DNA from: an uncultured virus (IMG/VR IMGVR_UViG_3300025769_011517)
Taxonomy: Duplodnaviria; Heunggongvirae; Uroviricota; Caudoviricetes
Direction: 5' to 3' (one strand)
Virus record (IMG/VR): IMGVR_UViG_3300025769_011517
Length of the DNA: 20,000 nt
A program made the position numbers and the translations under genes. Positions within the stretch are counted from its first letter, which is position 1. Every line of letters starts with the position of its first letter. Below, one piece after another: positions 1,851 through 20,000 of this stretch. The notes under the pieces are model-generated. The model saw only the letters and a list, made by a program, of their open reading frames with translations. It was not told the origin of the DNA and did no database searches.

Positions 1851-2239
1851 GCCTCATCATCTAGTAAACGCTTCAACGCAGACTCAAAACTGACCTCATC
1901 AGGATCATTTGAGTACACAAATATAACATCATTCAATATTGCATCAAGCTCCTTAGCCAACAACTTGATCGCCATCTCCCGCACATCCGCAGGCTCATCA
2001 GAATCATAACGTTCTCTTACCGTGGATGCTATCTCAGAAGCAATCGCTTCATCCACATAGTCATCTAAATACTCTTGCGCCACAACAATCTGCATCTCTT
2101 TCTTTTTCCACATTACCAGATCGTAGTCTTTATCATTAATAGCACCACGTGGAGCAGTCAAGAACGTGACCTCAATCTGCCCACGTTTAACAACTGCTAA
2201 CACATCACTGTCAAACTCATCAGCCCAATCATAAATCAT
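1847..2239 (-). CDS. Hypothetical acidic protein
   Basis: 130-aa ORF with an ATGA overlap with whiB. Confidence 0.7.
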   Translation of the reverse strand: MIYDWADEFDSDVLAVVKRGQIEVTFLTAPRGAINDKDYDLVMWKKKEMQIVVAQEYLDDYVDEAIASEIASTVRERYDSDEPADVREMAIKLLAKELDAILNDVIFVYSNDPDEVSFESALKRLLDDEA

Positions 2240-2460
2240 GAATTAACTAACCTGTCCAACTCTGGCCCGGTCTTACCACCCCACACACCAATCGTGATTT
2301 TATTCGTGACTGCAAAATCTAAGCACTTAGCAGAAGCGGTACAACCTGCACAAACCTTAACGGCGCTCTTGCGTTGCGACGGCTTGCTCGAAAAAAACGT
2401 TCGGTCATTACCCCGACACGGCGCACTCTCAAACCACTCAGGGCTAGAAAGTTTAATCAT
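2236..2460 (-). CDS. whiB: WhiB-family Fe-S transcription factor
   Basis: W...APC, C-x2-C-x5-C (CAGCTASAKC) and GVWGG motifs; AAGGAG RBS. Confidence 0.92.
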   Translation of the reverse strand: MIKLSSPEWFESAPCRGNDRTFFSSKPSQRKSAVKVCAGCTASAKCLDFAVTNKITIGVWGGKTGPELDRLVNS

Positions 2461-3028: not shown

Positions 3029-3562
3029 ATGTATGAAAACATCAAACTAGAATGGCAACAACACACTTTACAGCCCCTAAAGGGCAAGCCAGTCATGGAA
3101 GTTTTGCTTCGTGGACTTGAGTTTTTAGATGACTACTGGCTGTCTGCAGGAACGTTGCTGGGGCTAGAAAGAGACAACGAGTTCATTCCCCATGACACCG
3201 ATCTAGACATTGCTGTTATGGGTTACTGGGATAAAGCACGACTACCAGAAGAAGAGTTCTTTGCAGGAAGAGTTGTCAGTGATGGCGACAGGCCGATGCA
3301 AGCAGCGTATGTACATAAGGACACAAACATAGTTTTTGACGTGCTTCATTGGTGGCCGCACCCAACAGATACTGAACTTTTAATAAATATTAAAGAAGAC
3401 GGTCATCTAATCAGACCAAAGCACCTAGTCTCTCCCCTATCAACCAAAAATTATTTAGGTCACGAATTTAGCGTGCCTAACGATATTGATGGTTATTTAA
3501 CTGATTGGTATGACACGTGGCGCATCCCTCAAAGAGGAGGCAAGACTAAATGGCTAAAGTAG
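3029..3562 (+). CDS. LicD-family nucleotidyltransferase / phosphotransferase
   Basis: YWLSAGTLLGLERDNEFIPHDTDLDIA motif and C-terminal F.VP.D..GYL..WY..WRIP. Confidence 0.85.
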   Translation: MYENIKLEWQQHTLQPLKGKPVMEVLLRGLEFLDDYWLSAGTLLGLERDNEFIPHDTDLDIAVMGYWDKARLPEEEFFAGRVVSDGDRPMQAAYVHKDTNIVFDVLHWWPHPTDTELLINIKEDGHLIRPKHLVSPLSTKNYLGHEFSVPNDIDGYLTDWYDTWRIPQRGGKTKWLK

Positions 3563-3969
3563 CACTCACTGCAGCAATAATGGACTTGTGTCATGAGGGA
3601 CACATCAAACTTTTAAAGCACATGAAAGCTAGTGCTGATGTTGTAGTTGTAGTTTTACACTCCGACGAATCTTGTTGGAGCATTAAAGGCAAAATACCAA
3701 TCCAAACACTAGATCACAGAAAGAACAACCTAAAAATAACGGGTTTGGTTGACAATGTACTTGTCACCTACACAGATGACCCAAGCGCATCTTTCAAAGA
3801 AGCTTTTGATGCCTATCCAGACCACGAGTTTATTTTCATTCGAGGGAATGACAACTATGATTTCCCAGGAAAAGAAACAATTCTTGAACTAGGAATACCT
3901 ATTGAATTTACGGAGTACACAGCAGGAATTAGCAGCACTCAGATAAGAAATGAACTACTATGCGACTAA
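3550..3969 (+). CDS. Cytidylyltransferase (TagD/HxGH family)
   Basis: DLCHEGHIKLL (HxGH), HSDE, KGK.PIQ...R, RGND and YTAGISSTQIR motifs. Confidence 0.88.
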   Translation: MAKVALTAAIMDLCHEGHIKLLKHMKASADVVVVVLHSDESCWSIKGKIPIQTLDHRKNNLKITGLVDNVLVTYTDDPSASFKEAFDAYPDHEFIFIRGNDNYDFPGKETILELGIPIEFTEYTAGISSTQIRNELLCD

Positions 3970-4292
3970 TATGGTTACTAGCGGCACATCATTTTGCCGA
4001 TGTTGCGCTTCAACCAGACTGGTTGATAAAGTTAAAGTCAAAGCGACTGTTTGCAATTTTTGAACACGTTATGGTATACACAGGAGTTGTATGCGCTACC
4101 CTGTATTGGTTGGGAGATACAGTCACGCCTTGGATATTTGCGTACTTTGCTGTAGGGCACTGGCTAACAGACGCATTCTTCTACCAGTTTCTTCCGTGGA
4201 AAACTGGAAAGCCCAAACCTTACTGGCATGTTTACCCTGACCAAGCACTCCACTATTTACAAATAGTGCTTTATCTTCTGCTAATAGCCTAG
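3960..4292 (+). CDS. DUF3307-like membrane protein
   Basis: AHHFADVALQPDW, H..VY, HWLTD and DQALH pattern; hydrophobic. Confidence 0.7.
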   Translation: MRLIWLLAAHHFADVALQPDWLIKLKSKRLFAIFEHVMVYTGVVCATLYWLGDTVTPWIFAYFAVGHWLTDAFFYQFLPWKTGKPKPYWHVYPDQALHYLQIVLYLLLIA

Positions 4293-5430: not shown

Positions 5431-6405
5431 ATGGATAAAGATAAACTTCTCGAAGATGCTCTAGGACAAATTGAAAAGCAGTTTGGCGCTGGAAGCATCA
5501 TGCGTCTAGGCGACGCTGCTTCAATGCAAATTGAAACGATTTCAACCGGCTCTATCGCTCTTGACTTGGCGCTAGGGGTTGGAGGTGTTCCTCGTGGACG
5601 AGTCACCGAAATCTACGGACCTGAGTCTTCTGGCAAGACAACCATTGCCCTGCATGTGATTGCAGAAGCCCAAAAGAAAGGTGGCAAGTGTGCATTCATT
5701 GATGCGGAGCACGCCCTAGACCCTGTGTATGCTAAAGCAATCGGATGCGACATTGACAATCTTTTGGTTGCACAGCCAGACACAGGTGAGCAAGCCCTGA
5801 CCATTACTAACAAGCTGATTGAATCAGGCGCTCTAGACGTAGTAGTTGTAGACTCAGTTGCTGCGCTCACTCCTCGTGCCGAGATTGAAGGCGAAATGGG
5901 AGACAGCCACGTTGGCCTGCACGCTCGTCTGATGTCGCAGGCGATGCGAAAGATTGTAGCTAACCTTAATCACTCTAAGACAACCCTTATCATGATTAAC
6001 CAGTTGCGTGAAAAAATTGGTGTCATGTTCGGTTCTCCTGAAGTAACCACTGGCGGCAAGGCACTCAAGTTCTATGCGTCAGTTCGGATGGACATTCGTC
6101 GTATCGAAACGCTGAAGGACGGTGGCGAAGCATCTGGCAATAAGACACGAGTCAAGGTTGTCAAGAACAAGTGTGCTCCTCCTTTCCGTCAGGCAGAGTT
6201 TGAAATTGCATACGGTGAAGGAATCAGCCGTACCGGAGACATCGTGGACATTGCTGCTGAGATGGGTATCCTTGACAAGAAGGGCGCATGGTACGCCTAC
6301 AAAGGCGAGAACATTGGACAGGGCCGTGCCAATACCAAAGCTTTCTTGGATGAAAACGAGCAAATCCGAGAGACAATCGCAGATACCATCTACGCAACAA
6401 TTTGA
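5431..6405 (+). CDS. recA: Recombinase A
   Basis: [41 protein letters not shown] and [12 protein letters not shown]. Bacterial-type RecA lacking a long C-terminal tail. Confidence 0.98.
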
Positions 6406-7649: not shown

Positions 7650-9721
7650 CGAGACCTTCTTCTAGAATTACCCTTTTTACCTTTACCTCCACCGGAGTCG
7701 CCTCCGGGGCCTCCTCCTCCGCCACCACCGGAAGGACCGCCACCGCCGCCACCGGCAGGACCAGCAGATGTCGCAGCAGTGGCTACAGTCACGGCTGCGG
7801 CGGCAGCAACAACAGTACGACGAGTTTCTGTATCAACCACAGAACCCTCAGCGATGTATTCATTGAAAGCCTCGTCGTCAAAGATATCTACAGTCTCTTC
7901 AAACTCTGCCTTAACTTCGTCGTCCGCTTCGTTAACGGCAGCGACGAGAACAACTTTGGCATCGTCAGAGATGTTGTCAAAGTTTTCGTCAGTCACAAGG
8001 CTTTTGATTTCTTCCGTGGTGATTTCACCGTCAACGACATTCAAGAAATCTTCCGCAAGTTCCTCATCAAGCTCGTCTAGTTGTTCCACAACTTTGACTT
8101 CTGCTTCATCAACCTCAAGCAATTCAACGCCTTGAGTATCAATACCGAGTTCCTCAAACTCCACTTTAGTTTCAGCGGCTTTTTCTTCTTCAGGTGTCGG
8201 TGGAATGGTCGTTATTACCGGCAGCGTCGTCGTTGTCGTCGTTGGCGGCAGCGTTGTTGTCGTGCTTGTTGTAGTTGTAGTACTTGTTGTTGAAGAAGTA
8301 GTCGTAGTTGGGGTTACCGTAGTCGTCGTAGGCGGTAGGGTTGTAGTCGTTGATGTTGTCGTCGTAGTGGTAGATGGCGGTGCCTCCGTCGTTGTAGTTG
8401 TAGGCGCTACCGTCGTCGTAGTTGTAGGCGGCAACGTCGTTGTTGTCGTTACAGGTATTGTAGTGGTTGTGGTCGTGGTTGGAGGCAAGGTCGTAGTAGT
8501 TGTTGTCGTCGTGGTCGTCGTTGTGGTCGGGGGAACGGTGGTTGTCGTCGTGGTAGTCGGAGGAGTACCTTCTGAAACTTGAATTTCCATCGTCTCTCCA
8601 ACATGACAATCGTTCTCAGAACCGCAAGCAAGAATGTTAAAGAACCACGTCGCACTACCTAGGTCATCATAAGCAACCGTGTGAGAAGTCGAAGAAATGG
8701 TTTGAGTATAAGTAATGTTAGACTCATCTATTTCCCACGGATTACCAAGTTGGTTCCAAGCGATCTTGTAATGCGCAGGATCGACAAAACCGTCACTAGA
8801 AGCATCCCAACTAAATGTGATGTCGCCAGTAGCGTCATCCCGTTCGTAAGTCTGGTTGTCAACTATGTCGGGCATATTCATGATGGAGATGGAGGCAACA
8901 GATGTCCAATTAGAGTACAAAGCGTTAGTGTCGTTATCCGAGCGAACATTAACGTTGAACAAACCGTGTGCTTCGTTGAACAACTGCTCTATGTAAGAAG
9001 CGTTGAACGTATACTCGGTAACGAGAGCGTTCTCATCTCCAACGTTACCAGTAGCAACGCCATACGGTCCAGCGTTCCCGTCGTCATTCAGACCAAACCC
9101 AATAGCGTAACGTTCTGGATCAACGTTTCCGTCAGTTGGTGCATCCCAATCAGCCTTCACCGTACCGTTGTAGTAGTCAACGGTTAAAGTCAAATTGGTA
9201 GGATCGCCTATAGTTTGAGGAATTGTCGTCGTGGTCGTTGTGGTGGTTGTAGTGGTTGTGGTCGTGGTTGTGGGTATACTGTCTGAAGTTAAAGACAGAT
9301 CAGCAACTATTTCATAGTCATAACCAGACGGGTTCGAACCCAAGCCACGCAAACTGCAGCAATAGCCAGCCCTAATTCTGTAATCTCCAGCATTTAGGGT
9401 GGTATAAATCTTTGACGAAACACACTGATCAGCGAAGTTGTGGTTACCGTCGTCGTTTTGCGCAACTAACGCTCCAGTAGATTCGGGACCGTCTTCGTAT
9501 ACCCATAAATAGGGGTCTGCGCCGGGTTCTGAGCATGACCTGTTTGAATTACCATAGATAATGACTTGAGTCCCGTCATTATCAATTGAAAAGTACCAGT
9601 CAGATTCTTCGGTGACTGTGTATGTGGCGGCGGCTGCAGGTACAGGAGAAAACCACGCTAAAGCAAAAACCCACACAAGAGAAGCTTTAGCTGCACGCCT
9701 AAAATGTCTACCTCGACTCAT
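7646..9721 (-). CDS. Large secreted/surface protein: signal peptide, PPC-like and FN3-like domains, Thr-rich linkers, acidic domain, C-terminal hydrophobic + Gly-rich + basic tail
   Basis: ATG at 9721 with a GGAGA RBS. Basic/hydrophobic N-terminus ending PAAAA; DPYLWVY...NDDG; W.AP and FSWDA FN3-like motifs; long poly-Thr tracts. Confidence 0.8.
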   Translation of the reverse strand: MSRGRHFRRAAKASLVWVFALAWFSPVPAAAATYTVTEESDWYFSIDNDGTQVIIYGNSNRSCSEPGADPYLWVYEDGPESTGALVAQNDDGNHNFADQCVSSKIYTTLNAGDYRIRAGYCCSLRGLGSNPSGYDYEIVADLSLTSDSIPTTTTTTTTTTTTTTTTIPQTIGDPTNLTLTVDYYNGTVKADWDAPTDGNVDPERYAIGFGLNDDGNAGPYGVATGNVGDENALVTEYTFNASYIEQLFNEAHGLFNVNVRSDNDTNALYSNWTSVASISIMNMPDIVDNQTYERDDATGDITFSWDASSDGFVDPAHYKIAWNQLGNPWEIDESNITYTQTISSTSHTVAYDDLGSATWFFNILACGSENDCHVGETMEIQVSEGTPPTTTTTTTVPPTTTTTTTTTTTTTLPPTTTTTTTIPVTTTTTLPPTTTTTVAPTTTTTEAPPSTTTTTTSTTTTLPPTTTTVTPTTTTSSTTSTTTTTSTTTTLPPTTTTTTLPVITTIPPTPEEEKAAETKVEFEELGIDTQGVELLEVDEAEVKVVEQLDELDEELAEDFLNVVDGEITTEEIKSLVTDENFDNISDDAKVVLVAAVNEADDEVKAEFEETVDIFDDEAFNEYIAEGSVVDTETRRTVVAAAAAVTVATAATSAGPAGGGGGGPSGGGGGGGPGGDSGGGKGKKGNSRRRSR
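8205..8560 (-). repeat. Low-complexity (ACN)n Thr-coding tract
   Basis: Encodes repeated (L/V)PPTTTTTT units. Confidence 0.85.
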
Positions 9722-13728: not shown

Positions 13729-14754
13729 ATGAGAAAGCGCATTTTACTAACAGGTGGACTTGGGTTCATCGGATCACACACCGTAGAACATTGGCTAAAA
13801 ACGACAGACTGGGACATTGTTGTCTTAGACTCTCTAAGGTTCTCCGGCAGAATTGAAAGACTGCTGGACATTGAAGCCTACGACCCCAAACGGGTTACCC
13901 CTCTATGGCATGATCTCCGAGCACCCCTCCACGATCAAATCAAGCGACAAATCGGAGACATCGACTACATCGTCAACATGGCATCCGACTCGCACGTAGA
14001 CCGGTCCATCACTGAACCAGTTGACTTTGTACAAAACAATGTAAGCCTTGCACTAAACATGCTGGAGTATGCACGAGACGTACAGCCAGAAAAGTTTATT
14101 CAAGTATCAACAGACGAAGTATACGGACCTGCCCCCGTCGGACACGACCACGCAGAAGGAGAGCCGCATAGGCCCTCTAACCCTTACTCTGCATCAAAGT
14201 CTGCACAGGAAGCAATAGCTTTCTCATACTGGAGAACATACAACGTTCCCGTATACATCACCAACACCATGAACAACTTTGGCGAAAGACAGCACCCCGA
14301 AAAGTATGTTCCCATGGTCATCAACAAGATACTTAATGGTGAACAAATTGAAGTCCACAGCCGCCCTAACGAAAACGGCGAATGGACAATTGGATCACGA
14401 GTATGGCTACACGCACGCAACCATGCGGACGCAGTACAGCACATACTTCAAAACATTGACCATCAGCAGTACGTCAACAGCGACGTAACGCCTGACCTTC
14501 AACGCTACAACGTATCTGGCGACAGAGAAATCGACAACCTGCAAATCGTGAACATGATCAGCGATATTGTAGGCAAGCCCGCAAACTATGAGCTTGTGGA
14601 CTACCACTCTAGCCGACCCGGACACGACTTGCGTTACTCGCTCAATGGTGATAAACTTAAAAACGCTGGATGGACAGCACCCATGAGTGTTGAAGAATCG
14701 TTTGAAAAAACAGTCAACTGGACACTTCAGCATCCCGAGTGGCTGCTAGATTGA
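13729..14754 (+). CDS. dTDP-glucose 4,6-dehydratase-like NAD-dependent epimerase/dehydratase (RmlB-like)
   Basis: TGGLGFIGS, ASDSHVDRSI, VSTDEVYG, PYSASK, NNFGERQHPEK and RPGHDLRY. Confidence 0.9.
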   Translation: MRKRILLTGGLGFIGSHTVEHWLKTTDWDIVVLDSLRFSGRIERLLDIEAYDPKRVTPLWHDLRAPLHDQIKRQIGDIDYIVNMASDSHVDRSITEPVDFVQNNVSLALNMLEYARDVQPEKFIQVSTDEVYGPAPVGHDHAEGEPHRPSNPYSASKSAQEAIAFSYWRTYNVPVYITNTMNNFGERQHPEKYVPMVINKILNGEQIEVHSRPNENGEWTIGSRVWLHARNHADAVQHILQNIDHQQYVNSDVTPDLQRYNVSGDREIDNLQIVNMISDIVGKPANYELVDYHSSRPGHDLRYSLNGDKLKNAGWTAPMSVEESFEKTVNWTLQHPEWLLD

Positions 14755-14762
14755 TGTCACAC

Positions 14763-14791
14763 TTGACATAAACCAAACGGTTGCATATTAT
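14763..14791 (+). promoter_or_regulatory. Promoter of putative sRNA
   Basis: TTGACA-N17-TATTAT. Confidence 0.7.
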
Positions 14792-14796
14792 AAGAG

Positions 14797-14881
14797 TAGT
14801 CCTCTCATAATACACAAACAGCACTTTGGGTATTTCCAACGAGGAAGTGACCCCGGCCTTAGGGCTGGGGTCACACTATTT
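14797..14881 (+). ncRNA. Candidate ~85-nt small RNA
   Basis: Lies between a near-consensus promoter and a strong hairpin; contains no ATG; internal TCCTC/GAGGA and TTGG/CCAA stems. Confidence 0.45.
14847..14881 (+). terminator. Terminator hairpin
   Basis: GTGACCCCGGCC-ttag-GGCTGGGGTCAC followed by ACTATTT. Confidence 0.7.
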
Positions 14882-14894
14882 ACAGCCTACTTAT

Positions 14895-14923
14895 TTGACA
14901 TACCATTACAAGTGTGTTATAAT
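14895..14923 (+). promoter_or_regulatory. Perfect consensus sigma70 promoter
   Basis: TTGACA-N17-TATAAT with a TGn extension. Confidence 0.85.
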
Positions 14924-14951
14924 GAAGGCTCCATAACAAAAGGAGAAGAAT

Positions 14952-15545
14952 ATGGAATCAACAAACGAATACGCCGTTTTCCTAGACGTAGACGGTGTAA
15001 TTAACAGCATCAACCACCTGTACACTCGTGGCGAGCTTGACTTTGACGCAGAAACTCTGCCTCATCCCGCCAACGGCTACACAGTGTGGGTTCCCGACTA
15101 CATGGCGTCACTTGTGCAGGGGCTTTACAAGAGCACCGACCTGTACTGGCTGACCACGTGGCGAGATAATGCAAACCAGCACATTTCGCCCATTCTCGGA
15201 ATCCCCGAAGACATTCCCGTCATTGACGACGGCACCAAGGAACGTGCAGTGCACTGGAAGTTTGATGCATGCCTTCCCCTGGCGCAAGAACTTGCAGCCA
15301 AGGGACAGAAAGTATACTGGATCGAAGACTTTGGCGGACGGATCGACCCCCGCCACTCGCCTTACCTTACCTACGTAGACACCGACACTCGTGACGAAGG
15401 AGTCCTACTCCCTCAGCACCTGCCCTACGAACTGCAGGAGCACATCATTGACCACGGCGACTACAACGGCCCCCTGTACCTTAAGGCCCCTCGCACGAAG
15501 AGCAACTTCACGGTCCACACCCGTAACTTCGGAGTAGACGCCTGA
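14952..15545 (+). CDS. HAD-superfamily hydrolase (HAD_SAK-like)
   Basis: FLDVDGVIN, WLTTWRDNA, WK and WIED motifs. Confidence 0.8.
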   Translation: MESTNEYAVFLDVDGVINSINHLYTRGELDFDAETLPHPANGYTVWVPDYMASLVQGLYKSTDLYWLTTWRDNANQHISPILGIPEDIPVIDDGTKERAVHWKFDACLPLAQELAAKGQKVYWIEDFGGRIDPRHSPYLTYVDTDTRDEGVLLPQHLPYELQEHIIDHGDYNGPLYLKAPRTKSNFTVHTRNFGVDA

Positions 15546-16225
15546 TGACAAACCAGATCACAGTGCTAGACCAAGGCTTCGTAAGACTAGACGCCGCAAC
15601 AGCAGACGACCTGTCCGTAGTAAACGCCGCACGAGTCAGCTTTGGTCAGCACAGTGACGGCCTAACCGAAAAAGACAAAGGTCTCATCGGTTTCCTGATG
15701 CGGGAACAGCACGGAACCCCCTTCGAACACAACTTCTTCAGGTTCCACATCAAAGCACCTATCTTTGTTGTGCGAGAATGGTTCCGTCACCGCATCGGCT
15801 GGTCATACAACGAATACTCTGGACGATACTCAGAGATTCCCACCGAAGCCTACATGCCCGCAACCGAACAAATGCGGACACAAGTAGGCAAGCCCGGATC
15901 ATACACATTTGAACCCATGGAATCTGCAGAGTTCTCCGAAGCCCGAATGAAACTATCATACCACGCTAGTTTCCACGCCTACGAGAAACTCCTAGAAGAA
16001 GGCGTAGCAAAAGAAGTAGCCCGCATGGTGCTACCCGTCGCAACCTACAGCGAATTCTACGCCACAACAAACGCACGGGCACTCATGAACTTCATCAACC
16101 TACGAGGCGACGAAACCGCCCAATGGGAGATTAGACAATACGCAGATGCCTTGGAACACTTCTTCCAAGCAGCAATGCCCATCACACACGACCACTTCAT
16201 CAACAACGGGCGAGTAGCGCCCTGA
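15545..16225 (+). CDS. thyX: Flavin-dependent thymidylate synthase
   Basis: VNAARVS, HGTPFEH, REWFRHRIGWSYNEYSGRY, EVARMVLP and AQWEIR. Confidence 0.97.
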   Translation: MTNQITVLDQGFVRLDAATADDLSVVNAARVSFGQHSDGLTEKDKGLIGFLMREQHGTPFEHNFFRFHIKAPIFVVREWFRHRIGWSYNEYSGRYSEIPTEAYMPATEQMRTQVGKPGSYTFEPMESAEFSEARMKLSYHASFHAYEKLLEEGVAKEVARMVLPVATYSEFYATTNARALMNFINLRGDETAQWEIRQYADALEHFFQAAMPITHDHFINNGRVAP

Positions 16226-16236
16226 AAAGGAGAAAC

Positions 16237-17097
16237 ATGAAACACACAATTTACTGGAACGAAAAGTACACAGGCGCTGAACACGCCTTCGACACCACCC
16301 GCAAAAGCGGCGAAATCGCAGACGCAATCGGTCACGAACACATCACCGACCCCGCCAGCAACGGACACGTCGCCCTACACAACGCAAACGACGAAATCAA
16401 AAAGGCGCTGAGCGCCGACTACTACGAAGACCTGAAAACCGGTGGACCCAAGTCGCAATCCAACGGATTCGCATGGGACTACGGCATTTGGGAAATGGCA
16501 CTCAACTCCACAGCAGGAGTCATGTCAGCCACGGCAGAAGCCATCGTCAACAACACCGTAGCAGGAAGCCTCTCTTCAGGACTTCACCACGCCCACCACA
16601 ACAACGGCGCAGGGTTCTGCACAGTCAACGGCCTAGCCGTCACAGCAAACTGGCTCAACTCCCTACACGTCACCATCCTAGACTTCGACGCCCACTGCGG
16701 CGGAGGAACCGTCAAAATGCTACGGCACCTCAACATCGACTCCAGAGTGGAACAATACGACATCTCCACCAACTACTTTGACCAATACGAAGAAGATGAA
16801 ACACACAACATCCGAATCGCACAATCAGACGCAGACTACACAGATGCCGTAAACGAAACACTAAACAAAGTTAACCCCAACACAAACGTGATTTTGTACA
16901 ACGCAGGAACAGACCCCTACCCCACAATCTCACACGAAACACTAGCCGAACGAGAAAACACCGTATTCCAATGGGCAAAACAACACAACATCCCCATCGC
17001 ATACGTACTCGCCGGAGGCTACACCTCTGCCCAAACCATGGACAGCCTCGTAGACTCCCACATCAACACACTAGACGCCGCAGAAAGCATCGTGTAA
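16237..17097 (+). CDS. Histone-deacetylase-family (Zn-dependent) amidohydrolase
   Basis: GLHHA, GFCTVNGLA, ILDFDAHCGGGT, YNAGTDP and LAGGY. Confidence 0.88.
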   Translation: MKHTIYWNEKYTGAEHAFDTTRKSGEIADAIGHEHITDPASNGHVALHNANDEIKKALSADYYEDLKTGGPKSQSNGFAWDYGIWEMALNSTAGVMSATAEAIVNNTVAGSLSSGLHHAHHNNGAGFCTVNGLAVTANWLNSLHVTILDFDAHCGGGTVKMLRHLNIDSRVEQYDISTNYFDQYEEDETHNIRIAQSDADYTDAVNETLNKVNPNTNVILYNAGTDPYPTISHETLAERENTVFQWAKQHNIPIAYVLAGGYTSAQTMDSLVDSHINTLDAAESIV

Positions 17098-17106
17098 AAT
17101 AACACC

Positions 17107-17463
17107 ATGGACCCATACGAAACCTTCCCCACATACAGAGCAACAAAAAACTGTTTAGACGACCTCAACCCCGACGCACTACTAGCCGACGGACTTGAAT
17201 TCGCCTGCATAGGATGGACCGAAGTATGGGTCCCCCAACAAACAGGCGGCGTAGAACGCCTCCCAATCGCCGTATACAGCAAAAACAAAGTCATCGCCAT
17301 ACTCATGGAAGAAACAGACATGACACTAGAAGACGCACTAGAATACGCCGAATACAACATCTACGCCGCCTACATGGGACCCAACACCCCCATCTTCATA
17401 GACGACAGCTTCCAAACCATCCCCACACAACCCGTCCACCCACAAGACATGTACGAACTGTGA
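17107..17463 (+). CDS. Conserved phage hypothetical protein
   Basis: LADGLE.A.IG...AVYS..KVI..L...MT.EDA.EY.EYNI.AAYMG.NTPIF, a pattern common in aquatic phages. Confidence 0.8.
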   Translation: MDPYETFPTYRATKNCLDDLNPDALLADGLEFACIGWTEVWVPQQTGGVERLPIAVYSKNKVIAILMEETDMTLEDALEYAEYNIYAAYMGPNTPIFIDDSFQTIPTQPVHPQDMYEL

Positions 17464-19346
17464 AACGACTCTACCTCAACGGCACAAAACTCATCCTAGA
17501 CACACCATACAACAAAGATGAAGTACAAGCCCTAAAAACATCATTCCCCAACGCACGCTGGGACAAAATCAACAAACACTGGACACTACCCGTAGCCGCC
17601 CTAAAACGAGCCATATCCTTCGCCAACTCATGGAACATCAACGTGGACGAAGAACTCATAAGGCTACAACTACCCGACCACCCAATCGGCACAACCACCA
17701 TCAGACTCGAAAAAGAAATCCTAAAAATCAGCGTCCCCTACGACACCCTACAAATCCACGACCTCAAAGCCATCCCCGGCATAAAATGGAACCCCCACCA
17801 AAACCACTGGGAAACACCATACAACAACGTCCACGAACTCATCCAATGGGCAGACAAATACAACCACCCCATCCCCAACCACATCCGCACACAAGCAGAA
17901 ATCGAAACCAAAAAAGCCCAACACGCCCAAGAACTCACACAAGCAACCGACGCAAACATCAACATCCCAACCCTCCAACTCCAACTCTACCCATACCAAA
18001 AAGCAGGCGTAGCCTACGCCGCAGAAAAACAACGCACCTTCATCGCAGACGAAATGGGCCTCGGCAAATCACTCCAAGCCCTCGCAACCACAGAACACAC
18101 AAACCAATACCCCGCCCTCATCATCTGCCCAACCAGCCTCACAGAAGACTGGAAAACCAAAATCCAAGAAGCCCTACCCCACCGCACCATCCAAACCATC
18201 CAAGGCCGCAAAACCCCCACACTGACCGAAACCGACTACACCATCATCGGATACCCCAACATCCACGCCCAAAAACAACACCTCAACAACCAACACCACA
18301 ACACCCTCATCCTAGACGAATCCCACTACTGCAAAAACCCAGACGCACAACGCACCAAAGCCGCCAAAAACATCGCCAAAAACATCCCAACCACCGGCAA
18401 CATCCTCCTCCTCACCGGCACACCCATCACCAACATGCCAGCCGAATACGCCCCACAACTCGAAATCCTCGGCCACATCGACAACTTCGGAGGCCGCTGG
18501 AACTTCTACAAACGATACTGCGGAGCCTACAGAGACAACTGGGGCCACTGGCAAATCCACGGCTCAACCAACAACAAAGAACTCCTCAACAAACTACAAA
18601 CCCACTGCTACATCCGCAGAGAAAAACAACACGTCCTCACCGACCTCCCACCAATCACATACAACACCATCCACACCACAATGGACAAAAAACACCGCAC
18701 CATGTACAACCACGCCCTCAACGACCTCCAAGAATGGTACACCCAACAACAAGAACAAATCGCCATCAACGAAGGCACCAACCCCAACCAAGCCCGAATC
18801 CGAGCACACTACGCAACACAAAACTACGAAACCCTCATCCAACTCACAGAACTCAGAAAAATCGCCGCCAACTCCAAAATCCCCCACGCCCTAGAATGGA
18901 TCGAAAACGCCAACAACTCAGGACAAAAAATCGTCATCGCCGCCCACCACCGCCAAATAGTACAAACCCTAGCAAACGAACTCAACGCCCCAATGATCAT
19001 CGGAGGCCAAAACCCCCAAAAGACCGAAACCGCCAAACAAGAATTCCAACAAAACACAAACTGCATGAACATCATCATCTCAATAGACGCAGCCGCACAC
19101 GGACACACCCTCACAGCATCAAACAACATGCTCTTCATCGAAGCCCCCTGGACACCCGCCAAATACCACCAAACCTGCGCCCGAATCCACCGAATCGGAC
19201 AAACCAAACCCGCCACCATCCACAACCTCATCAACCCCAACACCATCGACCAACACATCTACAACACACTACAAAACAAAACCCAAAAAACACAACCAGC
19301 AATCACACCCACAGCCATACAAAACATCCTCAACACAAAACCCTGA
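17460..19346 (+). CDS. SNF2-family helicase with two N-terminal HARP-like domains
   Basis: Probable GTG start at 17460 (GTGA overlap). Motifs LYPYQ, IADEMGLGKS, ILDESH, LTGTP, GHTLT and ARIHRIGQ; two PY...LK..P...W...W repeats at the N-terminus. Confidence 0.9.
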   Translation: MKRLYLNGTKLILDTPYNKDEVQALKTSFPNARWDKINKHWTLPVAALKRAISFANSWNINVDEELIRLQLPDHPIGTTTIRLEKEILKISVPYDTLQIHDLKAIPGIKWNPHQNHWETPYNNVHELIQWADKYNHPIPNHIRTQAEIETKKAQHAQELTQATDANINIPTLQLQLYPYQKAGVAYAAEKQRTFIADEMGLGKSLQALATTEHTNQYPALIICPTSLTEDWKTKIQEALPHRTIQTIQGRKTPTLTETDYTIIGYPNIHAQKQHLNNQHHNTLILDESHYCKNPDAQRTKAAKNIAKNIPTTGNILLLTGTPITNMPAEYAPQLEILGHIDNFGGRWNFYKRYCGAYRDNWGHWQIHGSTNNKELLNKLQTHCYIRREKQHVLTDLPPITYNTIHTTMDKKHRTMYNHALNDLQEWYTQQQEQIAINEGTNPNQARIRAHYATQNYETLIQLTELRKIAANSKIPHALEWIENANNSGQKIVIAAHHRQIVQTLANELNAPMIIGGQNPQKTETAKQEFQQNTNCMNIIISIDAAAHGHTLTASNNMLFIEAPWTPAKYHQTCARIHRIGQTKPATIHNLINPNTIDQHIYNTLQNKTQKTQPAITPTAIQNILNTKP

Positions 19347-19431
19347 CATAACACAAACCAACCAACCCATAAAAAATATGTCACAAGTCCGCCCACGGAT
19401 GGAGGTCGCCCTCGAAAAGTCCCGGGCGATA

Positions 19432-19579
19432 CGAACAGGTGTTCGGTCGGGGTGGGCGAACAGGTGTTCGTGCGAACAGGTGTTCGGTCGTGTCGGCATG
19501 CGAACGTGTGTTCGTGCGAACGTGTGTTCGGTCGGGGCTGTCCGGGGTGCGAACATATGTTCGTGCGAACGTGTGTTCG
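19432..19579. repeat. Array of seven palindromic LexA (SOS/Cheo-type) boxes CGAAC-N4-GTTCG
   Basis: Boxes start at 19432, 19457, 19473, 19501, 19517, 19550 and 19566. Central spacers are AGGT x3, GTGT x3 and ATAT, all fitting RNRY. Confidence 0.85.
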
Positions 19580-19651
19580 TGCAAGCTTTGACCATCACAC
19601 GTCGACTCATCAAGCGTGAGATCGTTAAAGCCTTAACTATCTTTGGTGCAT

Positions 19652-19683
19652 GAAAGAACCCCGACCGCTGTGGCCGGGGTTCT
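19652..19683 (-). terminator. Intrinsic terminator for the minus-strand small gene
   Basis: Minus strand AGAACCCCGGCC-acagc-GGTCGGGGTTCT followed by TTC. Confidence 0.65.
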
Positions 19684-19690
19684 CGGGGGA

Positions 19691-19765
19691 TCACGAGTGC
19701 TTGTGCATGTCGTGGGTGATGAGTAGCGCTGCTGTGAAGAACAGTGCCAGTGAGATGAGTCCCAT
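19691..19765 (-). CDS. Putative 24-aa hydrophobic peptide MGLISLALFFTAALLITHDMHKHS
   Basis: AGAAAGG RBS before the ATG, with an upstream promoter and a downstream terminator. Confidence 0.45.
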   Translation of the reverse strand: MGLISLALFFTAALLITHDMHKHS

Positions 19766-19811
19766 CTCTGTGCCTTTCTGCCGATCCGGTAGTTCCGGTG
19801 CGACATGGATC

Positions 19812-19839
19812 ACTCTAGCGTATCTACTGCGCATGTCAA
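19812..19839 (-). promoter_or_regulatory. Sigma70-type promoter
   Basis: Minus strand TTGACA-N16-TAGAGT. Confidence 0.5.
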
Positions 19840-20000
19840 TAGCTTTGCCATAGTTGCTACAGATAGTTGTGATCGCTTTGATTGATAGCTCGCTGACTGG
19901 CATTCGTCGCCGTCCTGTTGCCGTTGCCGCCGCTCATGGCGAGTGCAATGGCGAGTGTTATGCCAGGATGCCGTCGCCTTCACCCCTCACCCTTCACCCC

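Follow-up and report, generated by a model that had tools for sequence, protein, structure and literature searches.

A stretch of 20,000 nucleotides from an uncultured virus of the Caudoviricetes (IMG/VR record IMGVR_UViG_3300025769_011517), referred to here as the window, contains within positions 19432..19579 (148 bp) exactly seven perfect copies of the palindromic box CGAAC-N4-GTTCG and none elsewhere, this box matching the operator of the SOS repressor LexA in Firmicutes and Actinobacteria. Considering that these boxes are perfect, densely packed and located at a site where no promoter was detected, and that in related phages the corresponding slot (the sequence directly past an SNF2-family helicase gene) gains and loses such boxes as cassettes or holds arrays of DnaA boxes or other palindromes, the reading which we tentatively favour, short of calling it probable, is that of a non-promoter array that would capture the LexA protein of the host, acting either as a sponge for this repressor or as a sensor of its state.

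The initial annotation of the window had described seven boxes in 148 bp, arranged as one isolated box and three TG-joined pairs with a 16-bp period, with GTCG and G-rich linkers and with AGGT, GTGT and ATAT as N4 spacers, and both the count and the layout were reproduced. An exact TG joins the two boxes of each pair, the first three units (the single box, then two pairs) are each followed by GTCG and a G-rich linker, and the spacers are AGGT (three boxes), GTGT (three boxes) and ATAT (one box). Successive boxes are spaced by 16, 25, 28 or 33 bp, and the linkers are rich in G and T (A1 C8 G28 T13). By chance, an average of 0.03 perfect boxes would be expected in 20 kb, and not one of the 200 dinucleotide-preserving shuffles of the sequence yielded as many as seven. 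The 12-mer core GAAC-N4-GTTC likewise occurs seven times in the window, each time inside the array, while a search in which up to two mismatches were allowed retrieved seven additional scattered sites outside it, the resulting total of 14 against 8.3 expected being approximately what chance would produce.

The array and the features that surround it are as follows:

17466..19346, plus strand: SNF2-family helicase gene (the open reading frame, ORF, is open from 17214; homology begins near 17466)
19368..19385: A/T-rich block ATAAAAAATATGTCACAA, found with minor changes in most close relatives
19386..19420: variable segment after SNF2, the sequence of which differs among relatives and ends with a conserved GAAAAGT (19414-19420)
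19432..19579: array of seven boxes of 14 bp each, with starts at 19432, 19457, 19473, 19501, 19517, 19550 and 19566
19655..19683, minus strand: hairpin with a stem of 12-13 bp, followed by UUCUUUCAU (a U-rich run); -26.7 kcal/mol, z = -3.9
19691..19834, minus strand: small gene of 47 aa (ATG at 19834) or 24 aa (inner ATG at 19765), with the hydrophobic C-terminal stretch MGLISLALFFTAALLITHDMHKHS
19839->19812, minus strand: sigma-70-like site TTGACA-16-TAGAGT (10/12 matches), overlapping the start of the 47-aa ORF

The array was thus correctly placed by the initial annotation between converging units in a region without an evident promoter, SNF2 ending at 19346 and the minus-strand hairpin, which is absent from the list of the strict terminator scan and is probably the terminator of a small minus-strand unit, being positioned 75 bp from the last box. 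A consensus scan of both strands of 19000-20000 detected no sigma-70-like site less than 230 bp from the array, the sole site being the one at 19839->19812, with the proviso that a scan of this kind can overlook atypical promoters. Accordingly, a promoter overlapping the array, by which the boxes would be made an ordinary operator, was not detected in the window, and none of the boxes was seen to overlap or adjoin a promoter whose gene it could repress. What the window does contain is one feature of a titration locus, namely a cluster of putative high-affinity sites outside promoters (seven consensus sites in 148 bp, no promoter nearby). The 35-nt variable segment does not fold significantly as a conserved RNA (z = -1.2), and an Rfam search of 19200-20000 returned four chance-level matches, all far under the gathering scores.

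Searches based on SNF2 identified 13 viral and 25 metagenome contigs, of which, following removal of duplicates, 27 extend at least 150 bp past this gene. The slot contains at least one perfect box in 14 of these 27 contigs and at least three in eight of them, while the other 13 have none:

L049 (99.95% identical to the window): 7 perfect boxes in the layout of the window
L050 (a 97% strain): 6 perfect boxes, the seventh having decayed
G002 (68.5 kb): 7 perfect boxes, its only ones, all in the array
L052 and L055: 6 perfect boxes each
L031 / G003: 5 perfect boxes
L026: 4 perfect boxes
L033: 3 perfect boxes, the contig terminating within a further box
L034, L056 and L059: 2 perfect boxes each
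L030, L032 and L057: 1 perfect box each
13 other contigs: 0 perfect boxes

When 18 slots were scored, 47 perfect boxes were counted as compared to two with one mismatch and five with two mismatches, in a set that takes in close strains and in which the boxes are therefore partly non-independent. Linkers, copy number and box order vary among the relatives, and the spacing of successive boxes (n=34) is 16 bp in 12 cases and 24-46 bp in most others, with outliers of 117 and 263 bp. Contig L056 harbours a TG-joined pair exactly where the near-identical backbone of L054 holds unrelated sequence. Because of this difference, and because 47 perfect boxes stand against two with a single mismatch, the boxes appear to be kept perfect or to be lost whole, moving as cassettes; because sister strains are without them, they are accessory and are unlikely to represent a core origin or packaging signal. 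The initial annotation had named absence of the array from related phages as a refutation of its interpretation, and absence was indeed observed in 13 of the contigs, while 14 carry boxes in the same slot; this partial absence is read as marking an accessory element, not a meaningless one. The scan for clusters that it had proposed for the whole phage and its relatives found the boxes of the window confined to the array, and boxes in the equivalent slot of 14 relatives.

The flanks of the boxes differ in how far they are shared. Directly after the stop codon of SNF2 the relatives share an A/T-rich block and, behind it, a short variable segment ending in GAAAAGT, while BLAST of 19580-20000 against the loci of the relatives revealed similarity only to L049 and L050, and a search of viral contigs with exact 35-base words from the right flank of the window retrieved nothing. 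Likewise, nothing near-identical to 19300-20000 was found in the phage collection; the nearest record, G001, is identical to the window but stops at window position 18130 and is consequently without the array.

The slot may be occupied by other types of site. In G004, ten of the 12 DnaA boxes (TTWTCCACA) of a 105-kb record are located within 260 bp (104612-104871; L032/L039), beside the single LexA box of this phage, the window having just one such DnaA box, at 2104, which corresponds to chance level. In G003, five LexA boxes flank approximately nine copies of a different palindrome, these copies being also called as hairpin-plus-T-run structures by the terminator scan. As a generalization, which we regard as possible though on the doubtful side, a single origin-proximal slot would exchange non-coding cassettes of host-regulator sites (LexA, DnaA, another palindrome family), these being auxiliary DNA-only elements, encoding no protein, by which a particular regulator of the host would be captured as phage copies accumulate and the host thereby reprogrammed.

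As regards the protein that may bind the boxes, the Streptomyces venezuelae LexA consensus derived from ChIP-seq is tCGAAC-N4-GNNCGa, and the recA and lexA boxes of this species are themselves imperfect, according to PMC9380542. All seven boxes of the window follow CGAAC-N4-GTTCG with a purine at the first and a pyrimidine at the fourth N4 position, and the match to the Firmicutes/Actinobacteria LexA operator that had initially been claimed for them extends to the relatives: in the 47 perfect boxes the first N4 position is a purine in 47 and the fourth is T in 47, the third being G or A in 45. The earlier description of invariant arms around a varying N4 is thereby generalized, since these 47 boxes differ in N4 and in linkers. 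The palindrome and N4 preferences of the array are the same as those of actinobacterial and Firmicute SOS boxes. In hosts, however, such boxes occur in one to three copies, are for the most part imperfect and overlap promoters, whereas the phage array is sevenfold, perfect and promoter-free. The search for a LexA-like repressor encoded by the phage itself, also suggested at the outset, yielded none, Peptidase_S24 and LexA_DNA_bind being without a match in five related records (fragments, 19-71% complete) under searches that do match in control genomes. Similarly, Pfam and PHROGs searches of the ORFs of the window found no known DNA-binding repressor family, many ORFs being unmatched or belonging to uncharacterised families. 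Host LexA is the economical candidate for the binder, and probably the right one.

The perfect TG-joined pair was encountered in 14 viral contigs, several of which hold arrays of three to seven boxes (GC content 49%-62%), and in only three contigs of a collection containing one genome each of 185,579 species. One of these three, contig L041 of Mycolicibacter (996-1530), belongs to the sole genome of a cultured organism with the pair and has two TG-joined boxes 16 bp apart, 14-43 bp upstream of the gene for a terminase small subunit; it is probably a prophage, and the arrangement suggests that its packaging genes may be under SOS control. The other two are contigs of metagenome-assembled genomes with GC contents of 66% and 28%, both bearing further boxes. 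A 4.8-Mb mycobacterial genome contains 30 boxes with perfect arms as compared to three for a reversed control pattern. In five Actinomycetota genomes of 1.3 Mb, perfect boxes number 1, 1, 1, 0 and 0, no more than for the reversed pattern; LexA is encoded in all five, and in four of them a single one-mismatch box (CGAAC-N4-GTTTG) precedes lexA. One phage genome thus carries more consensus sites than the total in any of these five genomes, which are not established as hosts.

LexA boxes were also noted in combination with other repeats. A second non-coding site of G003 (8438-8594; 94001-94157 in reverse orientation), about 8 kb past the slot, contains three LexA boxes together with repeated TTAGG-N4-CCTAA and TCCCGA-N-TCGGGA palindromes, and similar modules are present in L003, L008 and L009. 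Two 18-bp direct repeats with GTTCC-N7-GGAAC abut three to four tandem LexA boxes in L052 (~1150-1230), which is a relative of the window, and in L005 (~3031-3065) and L042 (~1245-1282), two contigs unrelated to the group of the window, all three being phage-like and their GC contents being approximately 50%, 62% and 66%, respectively. This combination looks like a composite module; assignment of the repeat pair to a known regulator was attempted and none was reached.

The slot coincides with a sharp change in strand composition. The plus strand is extremely rich in A and C over 17600-19200 (GC skew down to -0.53, AT skew +0.6), and at ~19400 the GC skew changes from -0.5 to +0.3 and the AT skew from +0.6 to about -0.1, the array region being G+T-rich. 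At four-fold degenerate sites of SNF2 (n=265) the base frequencies are A.36, C.63, G.01 and T.00, the corresponding values for G and T being.08 and.05 in a deacetylase-like gene and.10 and.09 in ThyX, so that the silent-site bias forms a gradient over 14000-19400 (from ThyX through the deacetylase-like gene to SNF2) with a sharp stop at the array, as is also seen in G002, G003 and G004. Among the five relatives compared, 179 of the 228 variable columns of SNF2 are A/C polymorphisms. The minus-strand genes of 1-2460 have the same plus-strand bias (four-fold GC skew -0.4 to -0.7), and the asymmetry therefore follows the DNA strand and not the direction of transcription. The cumulative G-C curve of G003 falls steadily over 86 kb and becomes flat exactly at the array, and the same rise of skew toward the slot is present in G002 and G004. 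To the right of the slot no mirror-image skew extends past a few hundred bases, and the switch from A+C to G+T is retained in relatives without any LexA box.

By the usual rule the leading strand has more G than C, and mitochondrial gradients serve as an analogue (established knowledge; PMC3269012). The observed skew would fit replication forks that depart leftward from the slot, the minus strand remaining single-stranded for longest near the start; the silent-site bias is of the mitochondrial kind, though more extreme. Given the break in skew, the spacer is therefore suggested to lie beside a replication start, and together with the DnaA cluster of G004 the slot looks origin-proximal. The composition could alternatively be selected, since a strand consisting of A and C only cannot form hairpins or palindromes. 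No description of an A/C-only silent-site composition in a phage was found in the literature searched, and it may report an unusual mode of replication.

Two genes of the window bear on the nature of the phage and on the SOS response:

2236-2460, minus strand: WhiB (Pfam)
5431-6405, plus strand: recA (Pfam RecA, 2.3e-136), with no LexA box in front

The WhiB family is typical of Actinomycetota and their phages, and its presence points to a large uncultured phage of Actinomycetota as the source of the window, the GC content of which is 48%. RecA is the co-protease of LexA, and the Pfam match confirms that the phage encodes it, as initially annotated. Further genes with Pfam matches are those for a Rad52-like annealase, a Cas4-like nuclease, SSB, a primase-helicase, thymidine kinase and ThyX, the replication genes standing just upstream of the slot. 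The SNF2 proteins of the closest isolated phages are just 28-31% identical to that of the window. When the phage RecA was compared with 301 Actinomycetota genomes, 294 were matched, the best among the matches listed being 63-70% identical, and no host was resolved. No tyrosine integrase was found in the five related records, nor were genes for lysogeny detected in the phage, which looks lytic. The replication module also includes, at 16237-17097, a gene for a protein of the histone deacetylase family (Pfam Hist_deacetyl, 1.8e-21) beside SNF2; phages do not usually combine these two genes. At 3029-4292 and 13729-14754 the window has genes resembling LicD, a cytidylyltransferase, DUF3307 and a GDP-mannose dehydratase/epimerase, which may serve the cell envelope or the modification of sugars.

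The mechanism that we favour can be formulated as follows. Since there is no promoter at the array to repress, it most likely acts by simply holding LexA dimers, and host LexA would be held on phage DNA by an accessory, non-coding cassette of seven sites located in a hypervariable, non-transcribed spacer past SNF2, beside a presumed replication start. Each new genome copy would add seven consensus sites, by which LexA would be drawn off the weaker operators of the host, and the SOS regulon would be loosened in the absence of DNA damage while the phage replicates. With copy number rising beside the replication start, the array would become an ever stronger sink; at the same time, its occupancy would report the SOS state of the host to whatever occurs at the spacer. 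We infer from the boxes and their position that LexA would bind, that it would be titrated and that the phage would benefit.

Several points weigh against this capture of LexA. Approximately half of the relatives lack boxes, which makes any benefit conditional, and the gain that a phage with its own recA would derive from inducing the host SOS response is not evident. The host is resolved no further than Actinomycetota on the basis of WhiB, the RecA comparison having provided no resolution, and the five small genomes, apart from not being established as hosts, have box counts equal to those of the reversed-pattern control. Finally, in G003/L031 a promoter-like TTGTCA-17-TAACAT (9/12 matches; 0.8 expected by chance) precedes the first box by 21 nt and the array is followed by small genes on the plus strand, so that the boxes could be ordinary operators there.

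That the array is, in the window as well, the ordinary operator of an overlooked promoter or small RNA, LexA repressing a transcript that begins inside or beside it and may run either to the right, antisense to the small minus-strand gene, or to the left, antisense to SNF2, is in our view distinctly unlikely. In L031 the promoter-like site reads into the array and a second one, recognized by eye, follows it, but this promoter-like segment of G002/L031 is missing from the window, and the scan finds no promoter in G002 either. Actinobacterial promoters often have no clear -35 element, and a consensus scan can therefore miss them; a TTGACC is present 8 nt past the last box of the window and is kept in L050, but no TANNNT hexamer occurs 16-18 nt beyond it. 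The small minus-strand gene, approximately 110 bp from the array, encodes a putative membrane peptide with a hydrophobic C-terminal helix and is retained in the 97% strain L050 with only silent and conservative changes, and LexA-controlled small toxic peptides exist in other bacteria; against this, the window has no sigma-70-like site near the array on either strand and no Rfam family match, and seven operators far exceed what repression needs. A replication start gated or modulated by LexA, in which LexA on the array would block initiation or one fork until it is cleaved and would thus serve as a switch or as a barrier that sets direction, was the other possibility raised by the initial annotation, and we consider it unlikely, if less so than an ordinary operator. 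What speaks for it is the probable association of the slot with replication: over kilobases the plus strand remains A+C-rich as far as 19350 and then turns G+T-rich in the array, this switch being located at the slot itself even though no lasting mirror skew is seen on the right; the asymmetry is bound to the strand and not to genes, as leftward forks would have it; the cumulative skew of G003 is flat at the array and that of G002 and G004 is directed toward the slot; ten DnaA boxes are in the slot of G004; and replication genes are just upstream. The 20-mer at 19369 (-21.1 kcal/mol) is also the least stable of 18800-19980, though this A/T-rich block does not stand out over the whole window, in which at least 15 other 20-mers are less stable. 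What did not hold is the role of the boxes as the core element, since an origin would be expected to rely on an indispensable, conserved cis-element and 13 of the 27 relatives are box-free with the skew switch kept, L054 and L056 differing by the box pair only. Nor does the window have regular initiator or DnaA sites, its single DnaA box being remote from the array and the spacing outside the 16-bp pairs being irregular (24-46 bp), unlike iterons. LexA is not known to act at a replication origin (no specific search for a precedent was made), and this also counts against such a role.

A phage-encoded binder that shares the specificity of LexA (an initiator, or a partition-like or small-terminase-like protein), by which host LexA would become irrelevant, appears about as improbable as the ordinary operator. 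Candidates are available among the many ORFs without an assigned family in the window and its relatives, and 12 of the 13 viral contigs end within SNF2 or at most 2.2 kb after it (nine of the 13 within SNF2 or at most 850 bp after it), which a physical end or packaging site could cause. Such contig ends may reflect either a physical end or an assembly break due to repeats, given that L050, L031 and L064 run through the slot uninterrupted and that repeats and low complexity also explain breaks. Moreover, the motif is the LexA consensus of host type in its arms and its N4 preferences, the same arrays occur in unrelated phages with GC contents from 28% to 66%, and an essential cis-site should not be missing from sister strains. 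For this last reason a pac site or core origin iterons were rejected as the principal explanation. Very improbable, finally, is the absence of any protein-mediated function, the array being a selfishly expanding palindromic repeat or a stack of cruciforms or hairpins that happens to resemble SOS boxes. Neighbouring boxes do share N4 and linkers, as would result from tandem duplication, and a strong fold is obtained for the single-stranded array (-80 kcal/mol, z = -6.4), but any array of palindromes folds in this manner, and its arrangement is not conserved between relatives. The arms furthermore remain perfect through changes in N4, in the linkers and in the number and order of boxes, and the exact LexA consensus is unlikely to have arisen by chance in several phage lineages.

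A capture of host LexA by the array can be compared with several known systems. In Bacillus phage GIL01, LexA boxes in promoter P1 control lysogeny together with the co-repressor gp7, as reported in PMC4551915. The likeness to this phage is the use of host LexA sites in place of an own repressor, the differences being that the array of the window has no promoter, that no integrase was found in the five related records, and that the sites are far more numerous. The datA locus of E. coli is a titration locus for DnaA, in which a high-affinity cluster outside promoters lowers the amount of free regulator. The array resembles it as a cluster of sites outside promoters, with one relative having a DnaA-box cluster in the same slot, and differs from this host locus in that LexA would be the target, drawn to a viral sink whose copies increase as the phage replicates. 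The family of repeats of Epstein-Barr virus (EBV) oriP and lacO/tetO arrays are protein-DNA arrays that stall forks; the likeness here consists of tandem dimer-binding palindromes next to a probable replication start with one-sided skew, whereas the binder in the phage would be a host repressor removable by damage, and box-free relatives display the same one-sided skew. Phage phi29 carries Spo0A boxes and parS. Binding sites for a host global regulator are similarly borne by phage DNA in the case of the CtrA boxes that occur in alphaproteobacterial phages (PMC9437464). In both of these cases the sites tie phage promoters or segregation to the state of the host, while in the slot described here the type of site is swapped within a promoter-free spacer. 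By these comparisons the array would work most like a titration locus or an origin-side protein barrier.

In the open-access literature searched for LexA arrays or decoys of phages, no account of such arrays in lytic or uncultured actinophages came up. The present analysis adds that the slot is conserved and its cargo exchangeable, that its boxes are either perfect or missing altogether, that a cassette is inserted or deleted between sister strains, that cellular genomes almost lack the perfect pair and that the slot coincides with a sharp break in strand asymmetry. The known use of host LexA by phages concerns temperate phages with boxes in promoters, whereas here the boxes are promoter-free, perfect and numerous in a phage that looks lytic, and strains swap the LexA sites for those of other proteins of the host. 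Should the array indeed act by capturing LexA, a virus would be rewiring host regulation by DNA alone, and the intergenic "junk" of uncultured phage genomes would be shown to be capable of bearing a host-directed function. The slot also constitutes a testable candidate replication start for a large group of uncultured actinophages.

Two further features are located at the right end of the window:

19936..19959: doublet of two direct copies of ATGGCGAGTG, also present to the right of the slot in L032, L050, L069/L070 and G003
19975..20000: first part of a simple repeat that is C-rich and heptamer-like (TCACCCC-like)

In L036/L061 ATGGCGAGTG is present as a single copy. The C-rich repeat extends for at least 226 bp more in the 99.95%-identical contig L049 (1981-2207), which ends inside it, and in several relatives the ATGGCGAGTG doublet is followed by long pyrimidine-rich simple repeats (TCACCCC-like, CTCTCC-like), at which the contigs L032 and L034 end. 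The doublet and these repeats could represent a physical genome end, an obstacle for polymerase or assembly, or a further protein site.

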